Assembly (NCBI GenBank): GCA_030641525.1
Contig: DAOWHH010000010.1
Span: 1-59,697, forward strand
DNA length: 59,697 bases
Direction of reading: 5' to 3'
From: a bacterium
GTDB taxonomy: Bacteria; Patescibacteriota; Minisyncoccia; Phycocordibacterales; UBA12079
This document shows, one piece after another, positions 10,481-22,575 of this stretch. The translations under genes were made by a program, and so were the position numbers. Within the stretch, counting starts at the first letter, position 1, and each line of letters opens with the position of its first letter. Under the pieces are notes generated by a model. That model saw only the letters and a list, made by a program, of their open reading frames with translations. It was not told where the DNA came from and made no database searches.

Positions 10481-10527
10481 AATCTCCGGAGGTCCAACCT
10501 CCGGAGGTTGGACCTCCGGAGATTTTT
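10481..10527. repeat. GC-rich compound palindrome (CCTCCGGAGG family), double unit
   Basis: AATCTCCGGAGGTCCAACCTCCGGAGGTTGGACCTCCGGAGATTTTT. A 48-nt stretch (10481-10528) is identical to the copy at 57374. It sits between convergent genes. Confidence 0.9.
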
Positions 10528-10598
10528 AACCACTCACCAGACGAAAACCATGTCTATGAGTGGTTTTCTTTTTACCCCACACCAATTAATAAAAAATA

Positions 10599-10627
10599 AA
10601 AGGGTGGCCGCGAAGCGGCCACCCTTT
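10599..10627 (-). terminator. GC-rich intrinsic terminator for the gene at 10671
   Basis: AAGGGTGGCCGC-GAA-GCGGCCACCCTT. On the minus strand it is followed by TTTTATTTTTT. Confidence 0.75.
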
Positions 10628-10670
10628 CACTTTCAACAAACCAAACCATCCAAAACCTTATTTTACATTT

Positions 10671-11831
10671 CTATCTATCATTCCACAATTTTCTATGAAC
10701 CACATCCACCAAACTTCCAAGAGTCACCAAAAATATAAATAACCCAAGAATCCATCCAATAAAAGGGATAAACCTTATCGCTACCAATAAAACAAAACCA
10801 CCAATTATATTTTTATATGTTATTACTGCACGATCAGATTTATGCATAATTTTACTTAACCATGCCCCTGTTATAATTCCAGAATACATACATGCAACAA
10901 ACAAAAGTAATATATAAGTAAATATTGTCATGATACCAAGCGGAATCCCAAATAATGTTATAAATAAAAGAATTGAAGCAGCTGGTATAATTATAAGAGC
11001 AACAAACCCTTTACCAAGCATTTTAAATGGGTTTTTCACAACACTTTGAAGAACCGAATTTGAAAATCTTTTAAATAACCAAACAAAAAGAAATGCAGTA
11101 AGAATAAATGCTAATAATTTAAAAAGAACAAAAACTCCGATAATTGCAAATATAAAATTCTTTATTCCTTCCATCTCAATTCCAGCAATACCTATTTCTT
11201 TAAATATCGTTTCACCTGTAATAACAGCACCTTCACTCATTTTCAATACCTCAGAACTTTTTGCGCTATATTCCAAATTTCCATCAATAATAGCACCATC
11301 ACCTATGATTAATTTTTCATCAATTTTTATTTTTACATCTCCTTTTATATGTCCATTAATTGTGATAATTCCTCCAGCAATTTGAGCATCACCCATGACA
11401 TCACCGTCAATAGCAATCTGTCCACCAGCAATTATAAGATCATCACCAACCATAACATCAGAAGAAACGACAACAGACCCACCTGTCACAATCAATTCTC
11501 CCGCTACATTTCCAGCAATTAAAATATCTCCTCCTACTACTCGCATATCACCCCCACTATTTCCTAAGATTTTAACAGCCCCACCAACCACGGCCATATC
11601 ATCAGATACATTCTCTGTAATCAAAACATTTCCACCGGCAGTAAGTAAGTCACCAAAAATAATACTGTTTATAGAAACATTTCCACCGGCAACATATAAA
11701 TTATCTTTAATATCATCACCTTTTCTAATAGAAACACTCTCTCCCACTTTCATAAAAGCACCAAAACTAAGCATCGGTATAAGTACCATTATAGCCAATA
11801 TTGGTATTAAAAAACTTTTTATATTTCGCAT
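10671..11831 (-). CDS. Exported bactofilin-like beta-helix repeat protein with C-terminal polytopic membrane domain
   Basis: Start moved to ATG 11831 (MRNIKSFLIPILAIMVL, signal-like). About 150 aa of G-G-x-V/I repeats follow (GGNVLI, GGAVKI, GGDILI, GGSVVV, GGQIAI, GGIITI). Five hydrophobic helices come after that. Confidence 0.7.
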   Translation of the reverse strand: MRNIKSFLIPILAIMVLIPMLSFGAFMKVGESVSIRKGDDIKDNLYVAGGNVSINSIIFGDLLTAGGNVLITENVSDDMAVVGGAVKILGNSGGDMRVVGGDILIAGNVAGELIVTGGSVVVSSDVMVGDDLIIAGGQIAIDGDVMGDAQIAGGIITINGHIKGDVKIKIDEKLIIGDGAIIDGNLEYSAKSSEVLKMSEGAVITGETIFKEIGIAGIEMEGIKNFIFAIIGVFVLFKLLAFILTAFLFVWLFKRFSNSVLQSVVKNPFKMLGKGFVALIIIPAASILLFITLFGIPLGIMTIFTYILLLFVACMYSGIITGAWLSKIMHKSDRAVITYKNIIGGFVLLVAIRFIPFIGWILGLFIFLVTLGSLVDVVHRKLWNDR

Positions 11832-11956
11832 ATCATTTTTTAAAATAAAATTAATAATAATATTATTATACCTTAACATTTCAATTATTAATACATCTTT
11901 ATTTTATCCACCGCTTTAAACCTTTTAGGGTATATTATTGTTATAATTATTAAGAA

Positions 11957-13243
11957 ATGTTTCTATATTCTTTAAAAAATAAATTGATAATTACTATAAT
12001 GACAGTAATTTTGATAATGGGTTTAACAGCTACCTATACTGTTTTTTTATATTCAAAAAACATATTATTAGAAAATGAAAAAGAGTCATTGATTATTATC
12101 GCTTCAGAACATGCACAGCAAATTGCTGCAGTGTTAAAGCAGTCCACTGATTTATCCGAAATTTTTTCTCAACAAGATTTTGTTGTAAATTACTTAAATA
12201 ATGAAGAAAGAGAATTGCAAGATGAAGAAGTTTTAAGCAGATTTGAAGCATATAATATAGGAGACAATTATTCTTCTATTTATTTATTAGATCAAGAAGG
12301 AACAACTTTGGTCTCTACAGACAAGTCCTTTGTGTCCAACAATTATTCTTTTAGAGACTATTTCAAAAAAGCAATATTAGGTGGAAAATATACAGATATT
12401 TCTGTAGGAATCACTTCAAAAGAATTAGGTTATTATTTTTCTGCTCCAATTAAAGATAAAAATAATAAAATTATAGGGGTTGTGGTCTTAAAGATGAAAC
12501 CTACCATTATAGATGATTTAATAATAAATCCTTATCTTAAGACCAGTCATGATAAACTCGGATTATTAGCTGTTATAGATGATTATAGTGTAATTTTTCA
12601 TTCCAATGATAAATCAAAATTATTTAAAAGTGTGGCATATCTCAACTCAGAAATTCTGTTAGAAATATCTGAGAAAAAAAGATTTGCTGACTATAAGATT
12701 GATCCTTTAGATTATGAAATTGATTTAGCAGAAATTAGAACAATGGATAATTCTTTATTCAAAAATATTTTGAGTAACACATCAAATGATAGTTTCTTGA
12801 TGGATATTGTTCAAATAGAGGGATATCCTTTTAATTTAGTTATCATAAAAAATGAGAGTGAATTAATATCAGAAGCAGTCAGCATTTCTCGTACATTAGG
12901 TTTTTTTGTTTTATTTTCTGCTATTCTTGCTTTGATTATAATTAATTTTTTAATTGGACGACATCTTAAACCTTTATCAGAATTAAATAAAATTGTAATT
13001 AAAGCAACAGAAGGAGATTTAGGGCAAAGAGTTTTGGTTGACTCAAAAGATGAAATTGGAATCTTAGGTAAAAATTTTAATAAATTAATAGAAAAATTAC
13101 ACAAAACTTTAATTAATATAGAGAAAAAAATTAATCAAAGAACAGAACAATTAGAAAAAACTAATAAATCTATGGTGGGAAGAGAAATGAAAATGATAGA
13201 ACTTAAAAAAAAATTAGAACAAAAGGAAAAAAATGAAGATTAA
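11957..13243 (+). CDS. Cache-like extracellular sensor plus HAMP domain protein without output domain
   Basis: TM1, a ~270-aa extracytoplasmic domain and TM2. The HAMP domain reads LKPLSELNKIVIKATEGDLGQRVLVDSKDEIGILGKNFNKLIEKL and is followed by a coiled coil. The protein ends there, with no kinase or MCP domain. Confidence 0.75.
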   Translation: MFLYSLKNKLIITIMTVILIMGLTATYTVFLYSKNILLENEKESLIIIASEHAQQIAAVLKQSTDLSEIFSQQDFVVNYLNNEERELQDEEVLSRFEAYNIGDNYSSIYLLDQEGTTLVSTDKSFVSNNYSFRDYFKKAILGGKYTDISVGITSKELGYYFSAPIKDKNNKIIGVVVLKMKPTIIDDLIINPYLKTSHDKLGLLAVIDDYSVIFHSNDKSKLFKSVAYLNSEILLEISEKKRFADYKIDPLDYEIDLAEIRTMDNSLFKNILSNTSNDSFLMDIVQIEGYPFNLVIIKNESELISEAVSISRTLGFFVLFSAILALIIINFLIGRHLKPLSELNKIVIKATEGDLGQRVLVDSKDEIGILGKNFNKLIEKLHKTLINIEKKINQRTEQLEKTNKSMVGREMKMIELKKKLEQKEKNED

Positions 13244-15512
13244 AACAAAAATAATTTTACCAATTGTTTTGACTGCTGTGATTGTATTAACAGCAGCAAC
13301 TTTTTATTCTTATTTTTTTAATGTAAATGCTCTAAAAACAACAATCGAAAGTCATCTAGAAACAACTACTCAATCAAGGGCTCGAAGTGTTGATATTTTT
13401 TTAGAAGAACAGGTGGATAAAATAAGAATAGCAGCTACACATAGTTCATTATCTAACGAAGAATTAAAAATAATTAGAGATTCTAATACTGAATTTTCTG
13501 AAGTATTTCTTTTAGATGCTACTGGAAAAATAATTAAATCCTCAAATGAAATACGAATTGGATTAGACCGTTCTACTGATGATTATTTTATCAATACCAA
13601 AGAAGGGGGGTATATTAAAGATGCTTACGTTTCTAAAATAACAGGCGAACCATCAATTGCAGTTTCTATTCCTTATGGTCAAGAGATATTAGTTGCTAGA
13701 ATGGGGTTAGAAGTTTTAAATGATATTACCACTGACAAAACAGGATTAGGAAATAAAGGAGAAGTTTATTTAATAAATAGCGGAGGATATGCTATCACCC
13801 CACTATTATTTAAAGAAGATACCTTTTTAAATTTTAAGATTGAATCAGAAAATGCTGAAAATTGTTTAAGTATGAATGGGTTTAAAAATAAAGAAATTAT
13901 AACACATAGCGAACCTGAACATATTGGGCATAAGCCCTCAATCATATACACAGATTATAGAGGAGTTGGTGTTTTAGGTTCCCATTATCCTTTGAGGACT
14001 ATGAGTTGGTGTTTGTTGGCAGAAGTTAATGAGGTAGAAGCATTAGCTTCAACAAAAGATTTATTAAGATTTTCTATAATTAGAATTTTAATCGTTTTGT
14101 CCACATTTTTTATAATCACTTATTTATTAGCTAAAACTATTAGTAAGCCAATTATAACCTTAAGTCAAGGAACGAAAATTATAAAAAAAGGTAATTTAGA
14201 TTATAAGGTTGGAATTGATTCACAAGATGAGATAGGTCAATTATCCCGAGATTTTGATGAAATGACAACCGCTATTAAAAAATCTCGGGCTGAGGTTGAT
14301 CAAAAAGTTAAAGTACAAACAAAAGAAATTATAGAGAAACAAAAAGATATTGAAAATCAACAGCTGGCTACTTTAAATATTTTGGAGGATGTTAAAGAAG
14401 AAAAAGAACTAACTGAAATTGAACGAGATAAAATAGATACTATCTTACAAAGTATTGGTGATGGAGTGTTTGTGGTAGATAAAGATTATAAGATTTCAAT
14501 CTTTAATAAAGTGGCTTCTAAAATTTCAGGTTTCTCTTTGGAAGAAGCTCTTGGACAAGATTGTAGAAAAATATTGAAATTTCTTGATGAAAAAAATAGA
14601 ACGCCTAATTATAGTTTCCTAGAAGAAACATTTTCCACAGGTAAGATCCAAATGATGAAAAATCATACTATTCTCATTAGAAAAGATGGTAGTGAGGTAG
14701 CTGTAGCTGATAGTTCTGCACCTATAAAAGATAATGCTGGACATATAATTGGGTGTATAGTTGTTTTTAGAGATGCTTCTGCAGAAAGAAAAGCTGAACA
14801 AATAAAATCTGACTTTGTCTCAATTGCTTCCCATCAACTGAGAACCCCTTTAACAGGAATTCAGTGGGTGACAGAAAGATTATTAAAAAAATCAAGTGCT
14901 TTACCAGAAAAAGATAAACAATATATAAATGACATTAATCTTTCTTCAAAAAAATTATCTCGACTTGTAGATAATTTGTTAAATGTTTCTAGAATAGAAG
15001 GTGGAAGAATTGGTATTAAACCTCAAGAAATAGATTTGATTGATTTTATAAATAGTTATTTAAGTGAGACTAATTCTTTAACTGAAAAGAAAAATATTCA
15101 ATTGAGTTTTGAAAAACATCCAGAAAATCTAAAAATTTCAAATGATCCATCTGCTTTAAGAAATATAATTCAATCTTTAGTTTCTAATGCGATTGAATAT
15201 ACTCCTCAAGGTGGGAAAATAAATGTTTTTGTAGAGGATTTAGAAAATAATTTCTTGTTTAAAGTAAGTGATACTGGAATAGGAATCCCCCCTCAAAATC
15301 AAGCTACTATTTTTGATAAATTTACTAGAGGAGAAAATGCACAACAAGTTAAAACAGATGGAACAGGTTTCGGTCTTTATATTGCTAAGCAAACAGTTGA
15401 TCTTTTAGGAGGAAAGATACATTTTGAATCTGTTTTGGATGAAGGAACTACTTTCTTTGTAGAATTACCTAAAAAGGTTAAAACTATAGTTGGTGGAAAA
15501 AGTTTTGTTTAA
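13233..15512 (+). CDS. Sensor histidine kinase (Cache-like, HAMP, PAS, HisKA, HATPase_c)
   Basis: H-box SIASHQLRTPLT, N-box NAIEYT, G1 DTGIGI, G2 GTGFGL. HAMP reads ISKPIITLSQGTKIIKKGNLDYKV..DEIGQLSRDFDEM. The start overlaps the upstream gene by 11 nt. Confidence 0.9.
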   Translation: MKIKTKIILPIVLTAVIVLTAATFYSYFFNVNALKTTIESHLETTTQSRARSVDIFLEEQVDKIRIAATHSSLSNEELKIIRDSNTEFSEVFLLDATGKIIKSSNEIRIGLDRSTDDYFINTKEGGYIKDAYVSKITGEPSIAVSIPYGQEILVARMGLEVLNDITTDKTGLGNKGEVYLINSGGYAITPLLFKEDTFLNFKIESENAENCLSMNGFKNKEIITHSEPEHIGHKPSIIYTDYRGVGVLGSHYPLRTMSWCLLAEVNEVEALASTKDLLRFSIIRILIVLSTFFIITYLLAKTISKPIITLSQGTKIIKKGNLDYKVGIDSQDEIGQLSRDFDEMTTAIKKSRAEVDQKVKVQTKEIIEKQKDIENQQLATLNILEDVKEEKELTEIERDKIDTILQSIGDGVFVVDKDYKISIFNKVASKISGFSLEEALGQDCRKILKFLDEKNRTPNYSFLEETFSTGKIQMMKNHTILIRKDGSEVAVADSSAPIKDNAGHIIGCIVVFRDASAERKAEQIKSDFVSIASHQLRTPLTGIQWVTERLLKKSSALPEKDKQYINDINLSSKKLSRLVDNLLNVSRIEGGRIGIKPQEIDLIDFINSYLSETNSLTEKKNIQLSFEKHPENLKISNDPSALRNIIQSLVSNAIEYTPQGGKINVFVEDLENNFLFKVSDTGIGIPPQNQATIFDKFTRGENAQQVKTDGTGFGLYIAKQTVDLLGGKIHFESVLDEGTTFFVELPKKVKTIVGGKSFV

Positions 15513-15563
15513 AATATAGAAATTTTGCTATAATATTACTAATTAATAATTTAAAAAAACATT

Positions 15564-15983
15564 ATGAAAATTAAGATAGTTTTAATAGAAGATGATGAGA
15601 TTTTATCTAAAGTAATCAAAGAAGAATTAGAAGAAGCTAATTTTAAGATTTATTCAGCTCTTGATGGAGAAAAAGGGTTAGAAATGGTAAAAGCAAAGAA
15701 ACCTAATTTAGTTCTTTTGGATTTAATGCTTCCTAAAATGCACGGATTTGAAGTCTTGGAAAATCTAAAAAAATCTCTTGAGACAAAACAAATTCCAGTG
15801 ATGATTTTAACTATGTTAGGAAGTGATGATGATATAAAGAAAGGACTGCAATTAGGAGCTAATGATTATATTGTAAAATCACAACATGCCGTGGGAGAGA
15901 TTGTGGATACAGTAAAAGATTTTTTTGCCAAAGAAAGCAACCCTGCTGGGAAAAAATCCGCTAAAAATAATGAAGAGAAATAA
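15564..15983 (+). CDS. Single-domain response regulator (receiver only)
   Basis: EDDE acidic pocket, LVLLDLMLP phospho-acceptor Asp, conserved T and K (YIVK). No output domain. Confidence 0.9.
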   Translation: MKIKIVLIEDDEILSKVIKEELEEANFKIYSALDGEKGLEMVKAKKPNLVLLDLMLPKMHGFEVLENLKKSLETKQIPVMILTMLGSDDDIKKGLQLGANDYIVKSQHAVGEIVDTVKDFFAKESNPAGKKSAKNNEEK

Positions 15984-16012
15984 GTAAGAATTTATTTAGA
16001 TAAAATAAATAG

Positions 16013-19000
16013 ATGTTTTTTTTAAAAAATATTATAAGAATATTTATATTTTTTTTGTTGAGTGTTTTTCCTATTGCTCAGGTACTTGCAGATACAACAA
16101 CTTATGATTTTTTAGGGGTAGATAATTCAAATCAAGGAACTAATAACTACCCTATCGCTATAGAGCATGATTCTGATATTTTCCCATGGACAATTTCATT
16201 AGAGCAAAATGATTCTGCTAATCCTACTGATGCAGAGTATATAAATATATCTACCGATAATACTTCAGAATGGATAACTGATGACTCTGGCCAAAAGGAT
16301 GAAATGGCCATTACTTTTAGATTCTTTATTCAAGAAATTATAAGTGATATTTCCAATATTCAAATAAGGTGGAATGGAAATACTGGAGGAACTACAGCTA
16401 GTAACCATTCAATTTGGTTAAGGAAAGATGGTTTAGATGAATTTGGAGGAACAAATACATGGGTTCAATTAGGGTCCTCTTTATCTATAGATCCTAATGT
16501 TGACACAGATTTAATCAGAAACTTAATTTCTGATTTTTCTACTTATATTAACGGATCTTCTGGACAATTTGAATTTGTTGTCACAACAGACGGAAATTCA
16601 GAAAGTTTAAAAACTAATTATATTGAAGTTATAACTACTTATATTACCACCCCTTTGCCTGACACAACTCCCCCATCAACCATCTCAGATTTATCCACAT
16701 CAGGTGCAACAACATCAACCATAGATTTAGATTGGACAGCTGTAGGAGATGATGCTAATTCAGGAACAGCTACCACTTATGACATCAGATATTCAACTTC
16801 AAATATTACCAATGATACTGATTTTAATAATGCTACTCAAGTATCTGGAGAACCTTCACCGAGTATAGCAGGAACTCCAGAGTCAATGACTATCACAGGA
16901 TTAAGTTCTAACACCTTATATTATTTCGCAATTAAAACATCTGATGAAGTTCCCAACACTTCTACTCTTTCTAATGTATCTAGTCTTTCAACTACAATCA
17001 TTCCAGACACAATAGCTCCTTCAGTTATTTCTGACTTAGCTCTTTCTAATCCGTCTGATTCAGCCATTACGGTTTCTTGGACAGCTCCTGGAGATGATGG
17101 AAGTACTGGAACAGCCACTATTTACGATTTAAGATATTCAACAAGCAATATCACTAATGACACTGATTTTAATAATGCTACTCAAGTATCAGGTGAACCA
17201 ACCCCTTCTATAGTTGGTTCATCTGAAAATAAAATAGTCGCAGGTTTAGATTCCAATACACTTTATTATTTTGCAATTAAAACATCTGATGAAGTTCCTA
17301 ACACCTCTACTCTTTCTAATGTATTTAGTCTTTCCACCACAGCCACTCCAGATATTACAGCTCCTGCTACAATTTCTGATTTAATCACTTCTGGAATAAC
17401 AAATAATTCAATTAATTTAGATTGGACAGCTCAAGGAGATGATGGAAGTACGGGAACAGCTAGTACTTATGACATCAGATATTCAACTTCAAATATTACA
17501 AATTTAAATTGGTCTTCAGCTATTCAAGCCACAGGTGAACCCTCACCAAGTGTAGCTGGTTCATCAGAATCATTTACAATTTCTAGTCTTTCTCCAAGCA
17601 CCTTATATTATTTCGCTATAAAAACTTCTGATGAAGTCCCTAATGAATCAGCTCTTTCTAATGTCCCAACTGGTACAACATCTGCTATTGCCGACACCAC
17701 TCCCCCATCAACCATCTCAGATCTATCTACATCAGGAGCAACTACTTCAACTATAGATTTAGATTGGACAGCTGTAGGAGATGATGCTAATTCAGGAACA
17801 GCTACCACTTATGACATCAGATATTCAACTTCAAATATTACCAACGATACTGATTTTAATAATGCTACTCAAGTATCTGGAGAACCTTCACCATCTATCG
17901 CAGGATCAAATGAATCAATGACAGTCACAGGATTATCTGATAGTACTTTATATTATTTCGCAATTAAAACATCTGATGAAGTTCCTAATACATCAGCATT
18001 ATCTAATATACCTAGTCTTTCAACTATCACTTCTATTGATAATATAGCACCGAGTTCAGTTTCAGATTTAACAACATCAACTCCAACACAAACATCAATA
18101 GATTTAGATTGGACTGCTCCTGGAGATGATGGAAGTACTGGAATAGCTACTACTTATGATATTAGATATTCAACAAGTAATATCACCAATGATACAGATT
18201 TTGATAATGCTACTCAAGTAGCCAACGAACCCATTCCGTCTACAGCTGGTTCTTTTGAATCAATAACTATATCAGGACTTTCTTCAAATACAACTTATTA
18301 TTTTGCAATTAAAACATCTGATGAAGTTCCTAATGAATCAACTCTATCAAATATCACTTCTTTAAGTACTAATGAAGAACCAAACATAGTAATTCCTATT
18401 GGTGGAGTATCAGGAGGAATATCAGCTACTAGTATTGTATTTTCAGGGCAAGCTTATCCAGGATCTAAAATTATTGTTCAAATGAAAGATGATCTTAGTT
18501 CTCTTTATAAAAATGTTCCTCTTTCTGTTTACCAAATGTCAAATACAGGAGAATTTTATATTTCCTATACTGCTCTTTTATCAGGACAATATTTTTTAAC
18601 ATTAAAAGCTAGAGATAAAAAAGGTCAAGAAACAGGTATTCAATCTTTTAATGTTGACTTTAGGACAGATAAAAGATTATTAGTTGAAAATATTATAATA
18701 CCTCCTACAATTAGTTTTAATTATGATTTATTAAAATTAAGTGATGCTTTAGAGATCAGTGGTTATTCATCCCCAGATTCAAAGGTTGAATTAAAAATAG
18801 ATGATATAATAAAAAAAGAAACTACTGCAGATAGTTCAGGTTATTATTCTTTTCTTTTTAATCCAGGAGATTTTATTTTAGGATTACATAGAGTTAAAGT
18901 TAAACAAAGTAAAGGAGAAAACGAAAGTAATTTTTCTTTCCCCCGTACTTTTAAAGTATCTTCTCTTATATATCCCCAAGCCGATTTTAATAAAGATGAT

Positions 19001-19150
19001 GAAGTGAATGTTAATGATTGGAGTATTTTCTTATTTAGATGGGGAGGATCTGATACTAATTTAAGATCTAAATTAGATCTAGATTCCAATGGAAGTGTTG
19101 ATATTAGAGATTTCAGTATATTTTTAAAAGCCATAAAAACAAGAATTTAA
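16013..19150 (+). CDS. Secreted Fn3-repeat surface protein with Ig-like domains and C-terminal dockerin
   Basis: Signal peptide and a unique ~200-aa N-domain, then five ~114-aa repeats (PS.ISDL...DL.WTA.GDDG.TGTA..YDIRYS...YYFAIKTSDEVPN). Two Ig-like modules follow. The C-terminus carries two dockerin Ca-loops, DFNKDDEVNVNDWSIFL and DLDSNGSVDIRDFSIFL. Confidence 0.85.
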   Translation: MFFLKNIIRIFIFFLLSVFPIAQVLADTTTYDFLGVDNSNQGTNNYPIAIEHDSDIFPWTISLEQNDSANPTDAEYINISTDNTSEWITDDSGQKDEMAITFRFFIQEIISDISNIQIRWNGNTGGTTASNHSIWLRKDGLDEFGGTNTWVQLGSSLSIDPNVDTDLIRNLISDFSTYINGSSGQFEFVVTTDGNSESLKTNYIEVITTYITTPLPDTTPPSTISDLSTSGATTSTIDLDWTAVGDDANSGTATTYDIRYSTSNITNDTDFNNATQVSGEPSPSIAGTPESMTITGLSSNTLYYFAIKTSDEVPNTSTLSNVSSLSTTIIPDTIAPSVISDLALSNPSDSAITVSWTAPGDDGSTGTATIYDLRYSTSNITNDTDFNNATQVSGEPTPSIVGSSENKIVAGLDSNTLYYFAIKTSDEVPNTSTLSNVFSLSTTATPDITAPATISDLITSGITNNSINLDWTAQGDDGSTGTASTYDIRYSTSNITNLNWSSAIQATGEPSPSVAGSSESFTISSLSPSTLYYFAIKTSDEVPNESALSNVPTGTTSAIADTTPPSTISDLSTSGATTSTIDLDWTAVGDDANSGTATTYDIRYSTSNITNDTDFNNATQVSGEPSPSIAGSNESMTVTGLSDSTLYYFAIKTSDEVPNTSALSNIPSLSTITSIDNIAPSSVSDLTTSTPTQTSIDLDWTAPGDDGSTGIATTYDIRYSTSNITNDTDFDNATQVANEPIPSTAGSFESITISGLSSNTTYYFAIKTSDEVPNESTLSNITSLSTNEEPNIVIPIGGVSGGISATSIVFSGQAYPGSKIIVQMKDDLSSLYKNVPLSVYQMSNTGEFYISYTALLSGQYFLTLKARDKKGQETGIQSFNVDFRTDKRLLVENIIIPPTISFNYDLLKLSDALEISGYSSPDSKVELKIDDIIKKETTADSSGYYSFLFNPGDFILGLHRVKVKQSKGENESNFSFPRTFKVSSLIYPQADFNKDDEVNVNDWSIFLFRWGGSDTNLRSKLDLDSNGSVDIRDFSIFLKAIKTRI
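16661..18380 (+). repeat. Five tandem ~342-bp intragenic repeats (Fn3-like modules)
   Basis: Repeat starts are at about 16661, ~17005, ~17350, 17693 and 18038. Repeats 1 and 4 share a ~140-nt stretch with a single mismatch by eye. Confidence 0.9.
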
Positions 19151-19180
19151 AAATTATTATTAAAAAATATTAATTAATAT

Positions 19181-19450
19181 ATATGCAAAGCATATAATTC
19201 CATCGCTCGGATATAGTAAAAATAATCATTAACATAATCATTTTTACTAGTCCTCACTCGAAATTAGATGAAACAAGCATATAATTCCATCGCTCGGACA
19301 TAGTAAAAATAAATATTAACATAATCATTTTTACTAGTCCTCACTCGAAATTATATGAAACAAGCATATAATTCCATCGCTCGGACATAGTAAAAATAAA
19401 TATTACCATAATCATTTTTACTAGTCCTCACTCGAAATTATGAAGCAGTA
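19181..19450 (+). repeat. 3.1 x 87-bp tandem repeat covering the 5' region and start codon of the cohesin gene
   Basis: Units start at 19190, 19277 and 19364. Each carries GCATATAATTCC and the hairpin TAGTAAAAAT-(16 nt)-ATTTTTACTA, then CCTCACTCGAAATTA-ATG-AAA-CAA. Units 2 and 3 differ by 1 nt before the 2-bp indel at the genuine start. Confidence 0.95.
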
Positions 19451-21164
19451 CCTTTTATTAACACCTTTTATATTTTTATATTTCGGTATTTTTGGTGTTG
19501 CCAATTCTGCCACTCTTTATCTTCTTCCCGAATACAGGAATATGGATATAGGGCAGGAATTTTTTGTAGATGTAAAAGTAGATACTAATGAAGATTTTAT
19601 CAATGCTGTTCAAAGCACTATTGATTTTCCTAATAATATAGAAATTATTGGTTCAGATAAACAGAATTCTGTATTTAATTTTTGGATAGAAGATCCAGAA
19701 ATTTCAGAAAGCAAAGATCAAATTATTTTTATTGGAGGAACTGCTAAAGGAGTTTCTGGAGAATCTATTCAAATTTTAAGAATAAAATGTAAATCAATTG
19801 GTACCGGTACAGGAACAATAGAAATGACAGAATCCGTTGTGACGGCTAATGACGGAAAAGGAACAAATATTTTGTCTGATATAAAAAATACTAGTATCAA
19901 TGTAGGTACCAATATTCAAGTATCAGAAGATATAAGTATAGCTGAAGCACCTAGAATTATTCCTCAAATAATTGAAAGAAAAGCTGTTATTGCTAAAGAT
20001 TTACCGGCCAAACCAGAATTAAAAGTTTCTTTATATCCAGATCAAGAAACTTGGTATAATCACCAAGGAGAAACAACAATTTTATGGGAAATAACAGATG
20101 ATGTTATAAAAACAGCTATTAGTGTAGATAATAATCCAAATTCAGAACCAGATACATCTGAGGATGCTCTATATACTGGTAAGAATATCGGTGTTTTAGA
20201 AGAAGGGATTCATTATATTCATGTTCAATTTAAAAATAATAAAGGTTGGGGTGAAGTAGCTCATTATAAAGTATTTATAGATACAACTTCCCCATTAGCT
20301 TTTGAAACAGAAATTAGTTCTTTTACTTCTACAAATCCTAGTCCAGAAATAACTTTTAAAAGTGGAGATGCTCTTTCTGGTTATTCTCACGCTTTAATAT
20401 ATGTAGATGAAAAAGAACCAATCTTTACTAAGGATAATTTCTTAACTCTTCCTATTCAAAAATTAGGAGGTCATTCATTAACAGTTCGTGTTTTTGATTT
20501 TGCAGGCAATAGTATAGAAGACGATTTAAATTACGAAATACTTCCTCTTGAAACCCCCACAATTAGTTTTTTTACAGAAAAAATATCTCAAGGTGAGATG
20601 ATATTTATTTCAGGAATTTCTATACCAGAAACTATTGTAATTTTAAAGATTCAAAAAGATGAACAGATAATATCTGAAGAAATTATAGAAACTGATGAAA
20701 CAGGAAAATGGGAATTGGCTTTGGATAAATTATTAGCTAAAGGTAATTATCTTCTTTCGGTTAAAGCTAGAGATAATAGAGGAGCTATTAGTTTAGATTC
20801 AGAAACAATTAATGTAAAAATTACTGCTCAAATAATATTTTCTTTAGGTTTGATGGATTTAGGTTGGTTTGAAATTTTTATTATAATTATGTTAACTTTA
20901 TCCATAGGGGGAACAATTGGAGTTTGGTATTATTTATCACAGAAAGAAGTCAAAGAAGCTTATAAAATTATAGCTAATAGAGATGTCAAAAAAATGAGCA
21001 AATTATTAGATGAAGATGTTTCTTTTATAGAAAAAGAATTTAAAAAAGAGAAAAAAATATCTTCAGAAGGAAAAGTGTCAATTGAAAGTTATATTAAGAA
21101 AATAAAAGATAATATTAAGAAAATGGATAAATATTTAGGTATTGAAATTAATAAATCAAAATAA
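19440..21164 (+). CDS. Cohesin-domain surface protein with C-terminal TM anchor
   Basis: Signal peptide, then a cohesin-like N-domain (ATLYLLPE...DIGQEFFVDVKVDT...INAVQSTIDFP...VVTANDGKGTNIL). Ig-like modules follow, then a TM helix FEIFIIIMLTLSIGGTIGVWYYL and a K/E-rich cytoplasmic tail. Confidence 0.8.
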   Translation: MKQYLLLTPFIFLYFGIFGVANSATLYLLPEYRNMDIGQEFFVDVKVDTNEDFINAVQSTIDFPNNIEIIGSDKQNSVFNFWIEDPEISESKDQIIFIGGTAKGVSGESIQILRIKCKSIGTGTGTIEMTESVVTANDGKGTNILSDIKNTSINVGTNIQVSEDISIAEAPRIIPQIIERKAVIAKDLPAKPELKVSLYPDQETWYNHQGETTILWEITDDVIKTAISVDNNPNSEPDTSEDALYTGKNIGVLEEGIHYIHVQFKNNKGWGEVAHYKVFIDTTSPLAFETEISSFTSTNPSPEITFKSGDALSGYSHALIYVDEKEPIFTKDNFLTLPIQKLGGHSLTVRVFDFAGNSIEDDLNYEILPLETPTISFFTEKISQGEMIFISGISIPETIVILKIQKDEQIISEEIIETDETGKWELALDKLLAKGNYLLSVKARDNRGAISLDSETINVKITAQIIFSLGLMDLGWFEIFIIIMLTLSIGGTIGVWYYLSQKEVKEAYKIIANRDVKKMSKLLDEDVSFIEKEFKKEKKISSEGKVSIESYIKKIKDNIKKMDKYLGIEINKSK

Positions 21165-21173
21165 AATAATTAT

Positions 21174-21554
21174 ATGCAAAAAACTATTGTACAAGTTATA
21201 GAAGATGATGAGATTTTATCTAATACTATAAAAGATGAGTTAGAGGGTGAAGGGTTTGAAGTTATTCAATCTTTTGATGGAGAAGAAGGTTTAAAAATAG
21301 CGAAGGAAAATAAGCCTGATATTATTCTATTAGATATAATAATGCCCAAACTTGATGGTATAGCTGTATTAAAAATGTTAAAACTTGATGCTAATATAAA
21401 AAATATTCCAGTTATTATTTTGACAGTATATGGAGATATGGATAAAATTTCAGATACAATAGAATTGGGAGCCAAGGCTTATTTCATTAAAGATCAACAA
21501 AAACTCTCAGAAGTTGTCAAAACTGTTAAAGAAATTTTAAATAATAAAAATTAA
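21174..21554 (+). CDS. Single-domain response regulator (receiver only)
   Basis: EDDE, IILLDIIMP, T and K (YFIK) receiver signature. 9 nt after the cohesin gene. Confidence 0.9.
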   Translation: MQKTIVQVIEDDEILSNTIKDELEGEGFEVIQSFDGEEGLKIAKENKPDIILLDIIMPKLDGIAVLKMLKLDANIKNIPVIILTVYGDMDKISDTIELGAKAYFIKDQQKLSEVVKTVKEILNNKN

Positions 21555-22504: not shown

Positions 22505-22575
22505 TTGCCGGACTAGGATTCGAACCCAGATTAGCGGAACCAAAATCCGCGGTCCTACCATTAGACGATCCGGCA
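22505..22575 (-). tRNA. tRNA-Gln (anticodon TTG)
   Basis: Reverse complement: TGCCGGA-TC-GTCT-AATGGTA-GGAC-C-GCGGA-TTTTGGT-TCCGC-TAAT-CTGGG-TTCGAAT-CCTAG-TCCGGCA-A. 71 nt. CCA is not encoded. Confidence 0.93.

Follow-up and report, generated by a model that had tools for sequence, protein, structure and literature searches.

The subject of this report is a cluster of six genes at positions 11957-21554 of contig DAOWHH010000010.1, from a bacterium of the Patescibacteriota; the whole stretch analysed, 59.7 kb in length, is referred to as the window. In this cluster a two-component system (TCS) adjoins the genes for a putative surface fibre and its membrane anchor. The parts (Table 1) were called from open reading frame (ORF) coordinates and from Pfam domains, with gathering scores as cut-offs: an accessory membrane sensor (g1), a sensor histidine kinase (g2), a stand-alone receiver (g3, termed REC-A), a secreted protein ending in a dockerin (g4), an anchor carrying a cohesin (g5) and a second stand-alone receiver (g6, termed REC-B). 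Comparison of related loci shows that a predicted four-part core, consisting of kinase, REC-A, dockerin protein and tailed cohesin anchor, is inherited together across hundreds of species, and that lineages differ around this constant core in the order of the genes, in accessory genes and in the input domains of the kinase. The TCS is very probably coupled in function to the surface module. We propose, at somewhat less than even confidence, that this coupling operates at the protein level. The original prediction, made from the sequence alone, had spoken of seven genes; six ORFs were found, as many as it had itself listed, and their order, shared strand and coordinates are exactly as it gave them. 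All six are on the + strand and fill the interval. The first two overlap by 11 nt, as predicted, and the subsequent gaps of 51, 29, 289 and 9 nt are short except for a repeat-filled spacer between g4 and g5.

Searches for proteins of the anchor family returned at least 163 and at least 491 matches, and relatives of the anchor are encoded in at least 441 species-representative genomes. Homologues point to the Pacebacteria/Paceibacterota group of the Patescibacteria as the source. In seven homologue neighbourhoods (31-64% identity) the dockerin gene was always located 5′ of the cohesin gene and directly abutted it in six, with one gene intervening in the seventh (L009); kinase and receivers were present in five of the seven, and the flanking genes differed throughout. 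A set of 80 species-representative loci was then annotated with profiles built from the window proteins, and 42 of these, each with flanks of 3 kb or more to either side, make up the well-flanked subset. A dockerin-bearing ORF abuts the cohesin gene in 72 of the 80 loci. Receivers of the REC-A orthogroup, recognized by the signature LG.D.DIK+.L.LGA.DY[IF]VK[ST]QH[AP], were present in 41/42 well-flanked loci, always on the same strand and with a median distance to the dockerin-cohesin pair of 30 nt. They occur on either side of it (5′ of the dockerin gene in 36 loci, 3′ of the cohesin gene in 27), and nearly all loci without the signature are truncated by a contig end. Within the well-flanked subset, a same-strand stand-alone receiver was found within 3 kb in 39 loci, a kinase within 6 kb in 38 and both in 35. 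Within 500 nt of the pair, stand-alone receivers reached a density of 10.3 per 10 kb, versus 0.06-0.12 at a distance of 5-10 kb, an enrichment of about 100-fold, and their placement beside the pair is far beyond chance. The conservation of gene neighbourhood on which the original prediction had staked itself is therefore strong.

The same loci were searched for a conventional output. Among 119 non-kinase receiver ORFs, 116 are stand-alone (<215 aa), and the sole OmpR-type regulator in the 80 loci (L030) lies 5.6 kb off, beside its own kinase. Unbiased clustering of all ORFs recovered only four near-universal families, those of the cohesin, the dockerin protein, the receiver and the histidine kinase. 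The next real family, an ABC-type ATPase, occurs in 15/80 loci, and the family that holds L011's copy of the sigma-factor gene of L001 occurs in 8/80. No recurrent DNA-binding, helix-turn-helix (HTH), Hpt or sigma partner was found by this clustering within 10 kb in the 80 loci. In the window itself, no transcription factor is encoded in the six-gene cluster or near it, and the rest of the 59.7-kb sequence contains no further kinase or receiver. The statements that neither regulator has an effector domain and that the cluster encodes no transcription factor, both made in the original prediction, agree with these results.

A reverse test started from the receivers. Eighty metagenome loci, mostly with generic receivers, were listed by receiver similarity, and those with the REC-A signature were contrasted with those without. 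Among the matches listed, a dockerin or cohesin gene was found in 0/70 non-signature loci versus 6/10 signature loci; of the other four signature loci, two are too short to judge and two are exceptions that are taken up below.

The identities of the two surface proteins rest on motif and fold. The last 57 residues of g4 match Dockerin_1 (PF00404) at 21.1 bits, slightly under the cut-off of 22.9 (E 3.7e-4), yet the dockerin call holds by motif. At its extreme C-terminus the protein carries a duplicated Ca-binding loop and helix (DFNKDDEVNVNDWSIFL and DLDSNGSVDIRDFSIFL), as in type I dockerins, which have two tandem EF-hand-like segments of 22-24 residues with the pattern D-x-[ND]-x-D-x-x-[IV]-x-x-x-D and a helix. 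The duplicated motif forms the end of the orthologous protein in every related locus (80-odd), and g4 orthologues carry precomputed PF00404 matches. Ahead of the dockerin are a signal peptide (a hydrophobic N-terminus), a clade-specific N-terminal domain, five FN3 domains (112.9 bits in Pfam) and a pair of immunoglobulin (Ig)-like domains that resemble Big_6/Big_13. Neither a glycoside hydrolase nor a carbohydrate-binding module family was found above threshold in g4. The dockerin proteins of relatives range from 191 to 3,309 aa, the longest being encoded in a Wolfebacteria locus (L072), and the only part common to them is the Ig-Ig-dockerin C-terminus. The FN3 array of g4 is encoded by a 345-bp tandem repeat (16732-18024, ~3.8 copies, 69-77% DNA identity), indicating recent internal expansion.

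In Pfam searches g5 itself matches Big_13 and no cohesin family. Of 31 family members sampled, however, 11 match PF00963 (E < 0.01, best 1.9e-10), the sole family matched, and the L088 homologue scores 26.6 against a cut-off of 24.1. The best PDB sequences for the family profile are cohesins of Ruminococcus (R.) flavefaciens (E 0.005-0.008). An AlphaFold model of the candidate domain alone (pLDDT 95.2) was compared with the PDB by Foldseek, and nearly all of the top ~46 structures were cohesins (TM-scores 0.65-0.78). The model matched 2jh2 with an E value of 6e-8, and the highest TM-score was obtained with 2xdh (0.78/0.79); we take these to be non-cellulosomal cohesins of Clostridium perfringens and Archaeoglobus fulgidus, respectively. 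Cohesins have the fold of a nine-stranded jelly-roll beta-sandwich, and by predicted fold the assignment of residues 24-155 as a cohesin holds. A model of full-length g5 (pLDDT 85.4) retrieved generic multi-Ig chains and was uninformative on this point, in contrast to the domain-only model. The domain order of the full-length model is a signal peptide, the cohesin, a linker, three Ig-like beta domains and one transmembrane (TM) segment, the helix of which runs on as a long cytoplasmic helix (476-535) that is followed by a second (542-573). g5 is a single-pass membrane protein with the cohesin outside and a two-helix hairpin inside. We infer that g4 and g5 constitute a non-cellulosomal surface tether of one cohesin and one dockerin, with binding predicted between partners whose genes are adjacent in most loci and whose sequences covary (see below). 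Cellulosomes consist of dockerin-bearing glycoside hydrolases and carbohydrate-binding modules on a scaffoldin with several cohesins; such features are absent here, as g4 carries only FN3/Ig modules and g5 a single cohesin.

On the signalling side, all domains of g2 score above their Pfam cut-offs, with HisKA at 62 bits and HATPase_c at 99.5 bits. The H-box (SHQLRTPL), N-box, G1 (DTGIG) and G2 (GTGFGL) motifs are all there, and by these motifs g2 is predicted to be a catalytically complete sensor kinase. In both receivers Response_reg is the sole Pfam domain, and no HTH or winged-helix domain was found in either. Residues E9/D10, D53 (the acceptor), T83, Y102 and K105 are invariant or near-invariant across g3, g6 and ten orthologues, all six being invariant in g3 itself, and both proteins look phosphorylatable. 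The term "CheY-like", applied to them in the original prediction, is valid for their architecture alone: for the NCBIfam CheY equivalog CheY_Halo the score is 53.8 bits, far under the cut-off of 200, and there are no chemotaxis genes. REC-A is 66-80% identical between loci whose anchors have dropped to 41-64% identity, and its most conserved part is the alpha4-beta5-alpha5 face. This face is the usual output surface of receivers. REC-B-type receivers are far more variable across lineages, and REC-B is most likely a modulator, serving either as a second branch or as a sink for phosphate. The orthogroups, which hierarchical clustering of the full receiver set failed to separate, were resolved by a motif-based view.

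The first gene of the cluster lies outside the conserved core. g1 has dCache_1 (71.5 bits) and HAMP (43.2 bits) domains, both above cut-off, and no output domain. TM segments flank the Cache domain of both g1 and g2, giving a TM-Cache-TM-HAMP topology, and the two are distant paralogues in their sensor halves (22% identity, E 2e-7). Orthologues of g1 are confined to the closest clade; elsewhere its position is occupied by different output-less HAMP proteins, and in other close relatives by a different Cache-HAMP or a short HAMP-only protein. From this distribution g1 is classed as a clade-specific accessory. It is probably an auxiliary co-sensor, and a g1-g2 heterodimer is possible. The kinases themselves differ across loci in their inputs (Cache with two TM segments, soluble PAS-only forms of 350-550 aa, or forms with 6-10 TM segments), and the rest is constant. 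In relatives L001 (4844-5266), L002 (4138-4557), L010, L013 and L024, a hemerythrin gene is inserted between the output-less Cache-HAMP sensor and the kinase, and in L001 a rubrerythrin gene also follows the cluster. No hemerythrin gene is present in the window, where g1 and g2 overlap. These genes hint at an O2, iron or NO input.

The cytoplasmic end of the anchor had been described as a K/E-rich tail and a possible target of the receivers. A cytoplasmic tail was confirmed; it is more specifically a conserved hairpin, modelled as two helices continuous with the TM helix, and the idea of low-complexity filler is out. The tail is present in 230/239 retrieved family proteins with a near-constant length of 73-90 aa and the consensus R.AY..IA.RD..K...LL..DL..LE ... 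K.K....KMKKYL..EI.K.K, a profile that marks it as a conserved module. No similar family or solved structure was found in Pfam or the PDB. A His-less DHp or Hpt-like bundle was considered and, at sequence level, rejected, as the HHalign probability against DHp was below 1% and the consensus has no conserved His.

Anchors without this tail were informative. In L008 (protein cluster P0077), L039 and L093-94 (P0074) the tail is replaced by short unrelated sequences. The dockerin-cohesin pair is kept in these loci, and no kinase or receiver is present in the flanks, which extend over ~10 kb for L008 and L093 and are limited upstream for L039. REC-A accompanies 41/42 tailed anchors versus 0/3 tail-less anchors in well-flanked loci (Fisher p = 2.8e-4, with no correction for phylogeny). 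Among themselves, tail-less anchors share 39-42% identity and are no closer than to tailed members. In addition, a cytoplasmic PAS domain replaces the tail in one clade of five protein clusters (P0121-P0125), encoded in L082 (2739-4649), L088 (5193-7124) and L090-L092, and again no kinase or receiver was found in the flanks at hand, some of which are short. Other genes were noted beside these atypical anchors. A stand-alone GAF protein gene overlaps the dockerin gene in one PAS-fused locus, a Ser/Thr protein kinase gene lies near the anchor in L088, two PAS-fused loci adjoin a type IV pilus cluster, and in L008, which has neither tail nor TCS, a pilin-like (N_methyl) gene (11708-12163) lies directly 3′ of the cohesin gene. 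The pilin-like gene and the pilus clusters hint that the surface module is occasionally associated with type IV pili. A general linkage was rejected: it was seen in these three loci, and the window contains no pilus genes.

Covariation among the parts was measured in 52 loci with all parts present, using Kimura-corrected distances and partial Mantel tests in which the anchor Ig region was controlled as a proxy for phylogeny. The two positive controls behaved as expected, with partial r values of 0.31 for cohesin-dockerin (p = 0.001) and 0.66 for REC-A-kinase. The tail covaried with REC-A (0.27) and with the kinase (0.29; p = 0.001 each), but not with the cohesin of its own protein (-0.01) or with the dockerin (-0.01). 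Values were likewise near zero for REC-A-cohesin (-0.02), REC-A-dockerin (-0.09) and kinase-cohesin (0.02). This pattern, which was robust to control for GC content and to removal of near-duplicates, argues that the module divides into a pair co-evolving outside the cell and a trio co-evolving in the cytoplasm, to which the tail belongs.

Taken together, these observations are consistent with the following mechanism. The dockerin of g4 would plug into the cohesin of g5, and g5 would thereby hold the fibre at the cell surface. With accessory sensor g1 tuning it, the kinase would phosphorylate REC-A, and REC-A and/or the kinase would contact the cytoplasmic hairpin of the anchor, so that the signal would act on the surface module directly and without transcription. 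Input to the kinase would thereby be transmitted through phosphorylated REC-A and the anchor tail to a change in anchor oligomerisation, conformation or fibre retention, and PAS-fused anchors would be the one-component equivalent of the same logic. The tail as contact point, suggested in the original prediction, gains support from three independent if indirect sources: it is a conserved module, tail-less and PAS-fused anchors are without a TCS, and its covariation is selective. The covariation does not tell which of REC-A and the kinase the tail would contact, nor in which direction the signal would pass. We judge the chances that the coupling runs through the tail to be about evenly balanced. 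An inside-out direction is possible rather than probable; it is favoured because kinase inputs are very diverse and the partner is constant, and because the PAS-fused anchor reads as a one-component version. In its fullest form, in which a phosphorylated receiver or the kinase docks on the hairpin and switches the display or grip of a fibre of up to 3,300 aa from inside, the proposal is speculative. Such docking would amount to a bacterial counterpart of integrin-style inside-out signalling, and would plausibly control how these episymbionts attach to their hosts.

Several points weigh against coupling at the protein level. The evidence is all comparative, and binding and phosphotransfer are predictions from it. 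A single TM helix conducts conformational signals poorly unless oligomerisation changes, and the tail is unlike any known receiver-docking domain in HHalign, Pfam and PDB comparisons. Some loci do not fit. L009 has a tailed anchor, yet no kinase or receiver is present in 2.8 kb upstream or 10 kb downstream; in L050, also tailed, kinase and receivers are ~3.5 kb away and no REC-A signature is close by. The two exceptions in the reverse test have REC-A-like receivers without a dockerin-cohesin pair: L101 (1-9270) has a kinase and REC-A followed by a methylase-containing island in place of the dockerin and cohesin genes, and L129 has a receiver with a weaker signature and no partners. The association of tail and TCS rests on few loss events, which are possibly non-independent. 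After mutual control the partial r values fall to 0.11 for tail-REC-A and 0.15 for tail-kinase, which are weak and not assignable to either partner. Mirror-tree and partial Mantel tests are liberal, with inflated false positives, and the covariation may in part reflect compartment-specific constraints on cytoplasmic versus extracellular proteins; we take it as supportive, not decisive. Finally, the promoter-like tandem repeat that precedes g5 fits transcriptional control equally well.

Transcriptional control is the conservative alternative. The kinase and REC-A would regulate expression of the adjacent dockerin and cohesin genes, and REC-A would work through a partner whose gene lies outside the module: RNA polymerase or a sigma factor, an Hpt protein together with a distant DNA-binding regulator, or a switch of the anti-sigma type. 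The tail would then serve some other purpose, for example in secretion or localisation. TCS genes commonly adjoin the operon that they regulate, as documented for XydS/R beside xyl-doc (PMC3572039). In the present organisms, OmpR-type regulators exist, as in L030, and a minority of loci have sigma-factor genes no more than 10 kb away, one family reaching the frequency given above. The spacer between g4 and g5 also offers suitable elements. It is filled by 87-bp units (TRF: 2.9 copies, 97% matches; copies 87-100% identical) that extend into the start codon of g5, with the earlier copies repeating the ATGAA start and an 11-codon mini-ORF (MKQAYNSIART*). Unit junctions create a promoter-like TCGAAA-N16-TATAAT, and each unit contains a palindrome with 16-nt arms that would form a stable 5′ hairpin (-14.5 kcal/mol, z = -4.1) with the AUG partly sequestered. 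The repeat may provide an internal promoter or translational control of g5.

This repeat is, however, private to the genome. The 87-bp unit was not found elsewhere in the window or in any of 94 related loci, where the corresponding gap is 2-65 nt, and it matched no family in an Rfam scan of the cluster for riboswitches; the repeat arose by recent, private triplication of the 5′ region of g5 and stands outside the conserved system. A promoter and terminator scan was uninformative on operon structure, as promoter-like sites numbered 68 versus 68.2 in shuffles of this AT-rich DNA. Transcriptional control also has to do without a recurrent DNA-binding, Hpt or sigma gene near the module, where no family beyond the four core ones exceeds 15/80 loci. 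It leaves unexplained why tail-less and PAS-fused anchors are without kinase and receiver, and why the tail covaries with the two signalling proteins, REC-A and kinase, and not with the ectodomain of its own anchor. We consider it rather unlikely.

A second alternative reverses the direction of signalling. The fibre and anchor would be the input, with binding to the fibre or tension on it, for instance upon contact with a host cell, relayed through the TM segment and tail to the kinase or REC-A. The receivers would in turn act on something encoded away from the module, for example the division machinery or type IV pili. Covariation of the tail with the kinase is at least equal to that with REC-A (0.29, and 0.15 with REC-A controlled); soluble PAS-only kinases, which have no extracellular sensor of their own, occur in many lineages; PAS-fused anchors resemble transmembrane receptors; and the two PAS-fused loci beside a type IV pilus cluster, together with the pilin-like gene adjoining the L008 anchor, would fit a pilus target. 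On the other hand, the Cache domain of the kinase and the accessory Cache sensor, present in the window and in many relatives, would be superfluous if the fibre were the sensor. A variable input with a constant partner is the pattern expected of a conserved output, and because PAS is typically an input domain, its fusion to the anchor more naturally suggests that the anchor is what the input acts on. Nor does the module have a conserved downstream target linked to it, and the window contains none of the pilus genes that this alternative invokes. We regard outside-in signalling as unlikely. That the genes are merely neighbours by inherited synteny is highly improbable: Candidate Phyla Radiation (CPR) genomes are small, compact and gene-dense, and in several loci some housekeeping genes, TGT for one, are likewise found repeatedly near the module, but the linkage outlasts repeated rearrangement, with REC-A found upstream or downstream of the pair amid differing flanks, the receivers are locally enriched, the reverse test was specific to the REC-A orthogroup, and tail and TCS are lost in correlated fashion.

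Table 1. Coordinates of the six genes and of the features within and between them.
Feature	Position in window	Strand	Description
g1, accessory membrane sensor, 428 aa	11957-13243	+	TM-dCache_1-TM-HAMP, then coiled-coil tail
g2, sensor histidine kinase, 759 aa	13233-15512	+	TM-dCache_1-TM-HAMP-PAS-HisKA-HATPase_c
g3 (REC-A), stand-alone receiver, 139 aa	15564-15983	+	Response_reg only; short charged C-terminal extension
g4, secreted surface fibre protein, 1045 aa	16013-19150	+	FN3/Ig domains, C-terminal dockerin
g4 dockerin module, aa 989-1045	18977-19147	+	two Ca-binding loop and helix repeats
87-bp tandem repeat x3, g4-g5 spacer	19188-19448	+	TRF
g5, membrane anchor, 574 aa	19440-21164	+	cohesin (predicted), Ig-like domains, TM, cytoplasmic hairpin
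g5 cohesin domain, aa 24-155	19509-19904	+	predicted fold, Foldseek
g5 cytoplasmic tail, aa 499-574	20934-21161	+	conservation profile; two amphipathic helices
g6 (REC-B), second stand-alone receiver, 126 aa	21174-21554	+	Response_reg only; 9 nt 3′ of g5

The remainder of the window (GC ~29%) is occupied by housekeeping genes, including those for DnaE, DnaX, RNase III, NusB, MurJ, MreB and AlaRS and pyrimidine genes. It contains no che, flagellar or methyl-accepting chemotaxis protein signalling-domain genes, and GGDEF, EAL and LapG-like domains were found neither in the cluster nor elsewhere in the window. A type II restriction-modification system, consisting of a TaqI-like restriction endonuclease (- strand) and an N6/N4 DNA methylase, is located at the window start (140-1771). 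The divergent neighbour of g1 is a 402-aa ORF (10671-11879, - strand) that matches no Pfam family above threshold; it has a weak bactofilin-like match only (E 0.0025, 18.5 bits versus a cut-off of 27.9) and is not kept beside the module in relatives. Upstream of this ORF, two GC-rich perfect or near-perfect hairpins with 20-bp stems (10481-10524 and 10592-10634), one of them a 44-nt palindrome, stand in an AT-rich intergenic region. They are probably bidirectional terminators, and the weak, sub-threshold Rfam matches at these positions are likely due to chance. A tRNA gene (22505-22575, - strand; Rfam tRNA, 57.7 bits) lies ~1 kb downstream of the cluster.

The CPR, or Patescibacteria, are a large and mostly uncultured group whose lifestyle is thought to depend on attachment, and how attachment is sensed and regulated in them is almost unstudied. 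Only a small number of signalling systems are shared by many of their lineages, and the module is one of them. Direct action of the receiver or kinase on the anchor, if true, would represent a new output class for two-component signalling; cohesin-dockerin pairs would gain a regulated, non-cellulolytic role, and kinase, REC-A, tail, cohesin and dockerin would offer a molecular handle for studies of host attachment. On a conservative reading, the locus provides a conserved regulon and set of sensors that serve what is predicted to be the principal surface fibre in these bacteria. No description of the module in Patescibacteria, CPR or Parcubacteria was found in the literature open to full-text search.

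The closest documented case is that of XydS/XydR in Clostridium (Ruminiclostridium) cellulolyticum, a system encoded upstream of the xyl-doc cluster of dockerin-bearing proteins, which it controls (PMC3572039). Here, too, a kinase and response regulator are encoded directly beside genes for secreted dockerin proteins. XydR is a 532-aa protein that combines a receiver with an AraC-type HTH domain and binds DNA upstream of its targets (PMC3572039). By contrast, g3 and g6 are receiver-only, lacking the DNA-binding effector of orthodox transcriptional systems of the XydS/R or OmpR/PhoB type, and the module has no linked DNA-binding partner. The proteins of xyl-doc, moreover, are cellulosomal enzymes, whereas g4 has only FN3/Ig modules, and the xyl-doc cluster is without a cohesin anchor bearing a cytoplasmic tail.

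Sensory machinery dedicated to a cohesin-dockerin system is also represented by the RsgI/SigI anti-sigma sensors of Clostridium thermocellum, which control its cellulosome genes; there is no sigma/anti-sigma pair here. The cohesins of 2xdh and 2jh2 are the nearest to the g5 domain model, and the canonical duplicated dockerin partner and lack of a glycoside hydrolase extend the likeness to these non-cellulosomal proteins. To our knowledge, non-cellulosomal cohesin-dockerin pairs have never been described with a dedicated TCS or a conserved cytoplasmic tail. Output-less membrane proteins that modulate kinases as auxiliary regulators are exemplified by YycH/YycI with WalK and by BceAB with BceS, and g1 and the anchor tail could have a comparable role. 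However, g1 is an unrelated Cache-HAMP protein, and the anchor, unlike BceAB, is not a transporter.

Single-domain response regulators whose output is protein contact include CheY (with FliM), DivK (DivL/PleC), CpdR (ClpXP) and Spo0F. The receivers of the module resemble them in their size of ~120-140 aa, full set of phospho-acceptor residues, lack of an effector and, in REC-A, the conservation of the alpha4-beta5-alpha5 face. They differ in that the module is without chemotaxis, flagellar, Hpt or ClpXP genes, and in the proposed target, the hairpin of a cohesin anchor, which is not a known receiver target; we know of no stand-alone receiver that acts on a surface anchor. What appears to be new is therefore a stand-alone-receiver TCS tied to a new kind of partner, with direct coupling proposed as the mechanism.

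The proposed logic has its nearest functional analogues in integrins and in the LapD-LapG-LapA system of Pseudomonas fluorescens, in which a cytoplasmic signal binds a transmembrane protein on the inside and controls an adhesin on the outside. The likeness is one of inside-out logic, not of homology. LapD is a degenerate GGDEF-EAL receptor for c-di-GMP, and its periplasmic domain sequesters the protease LapG. GGDEF, EAL and c-di-GMP domains, a LapG-type protease and type I secretion, by which a LapD system would be recognized, are absent here. Instead, the signal would be a phosphorylated receiver, and the fibre would be retained by a cohesin-dockerin plug.

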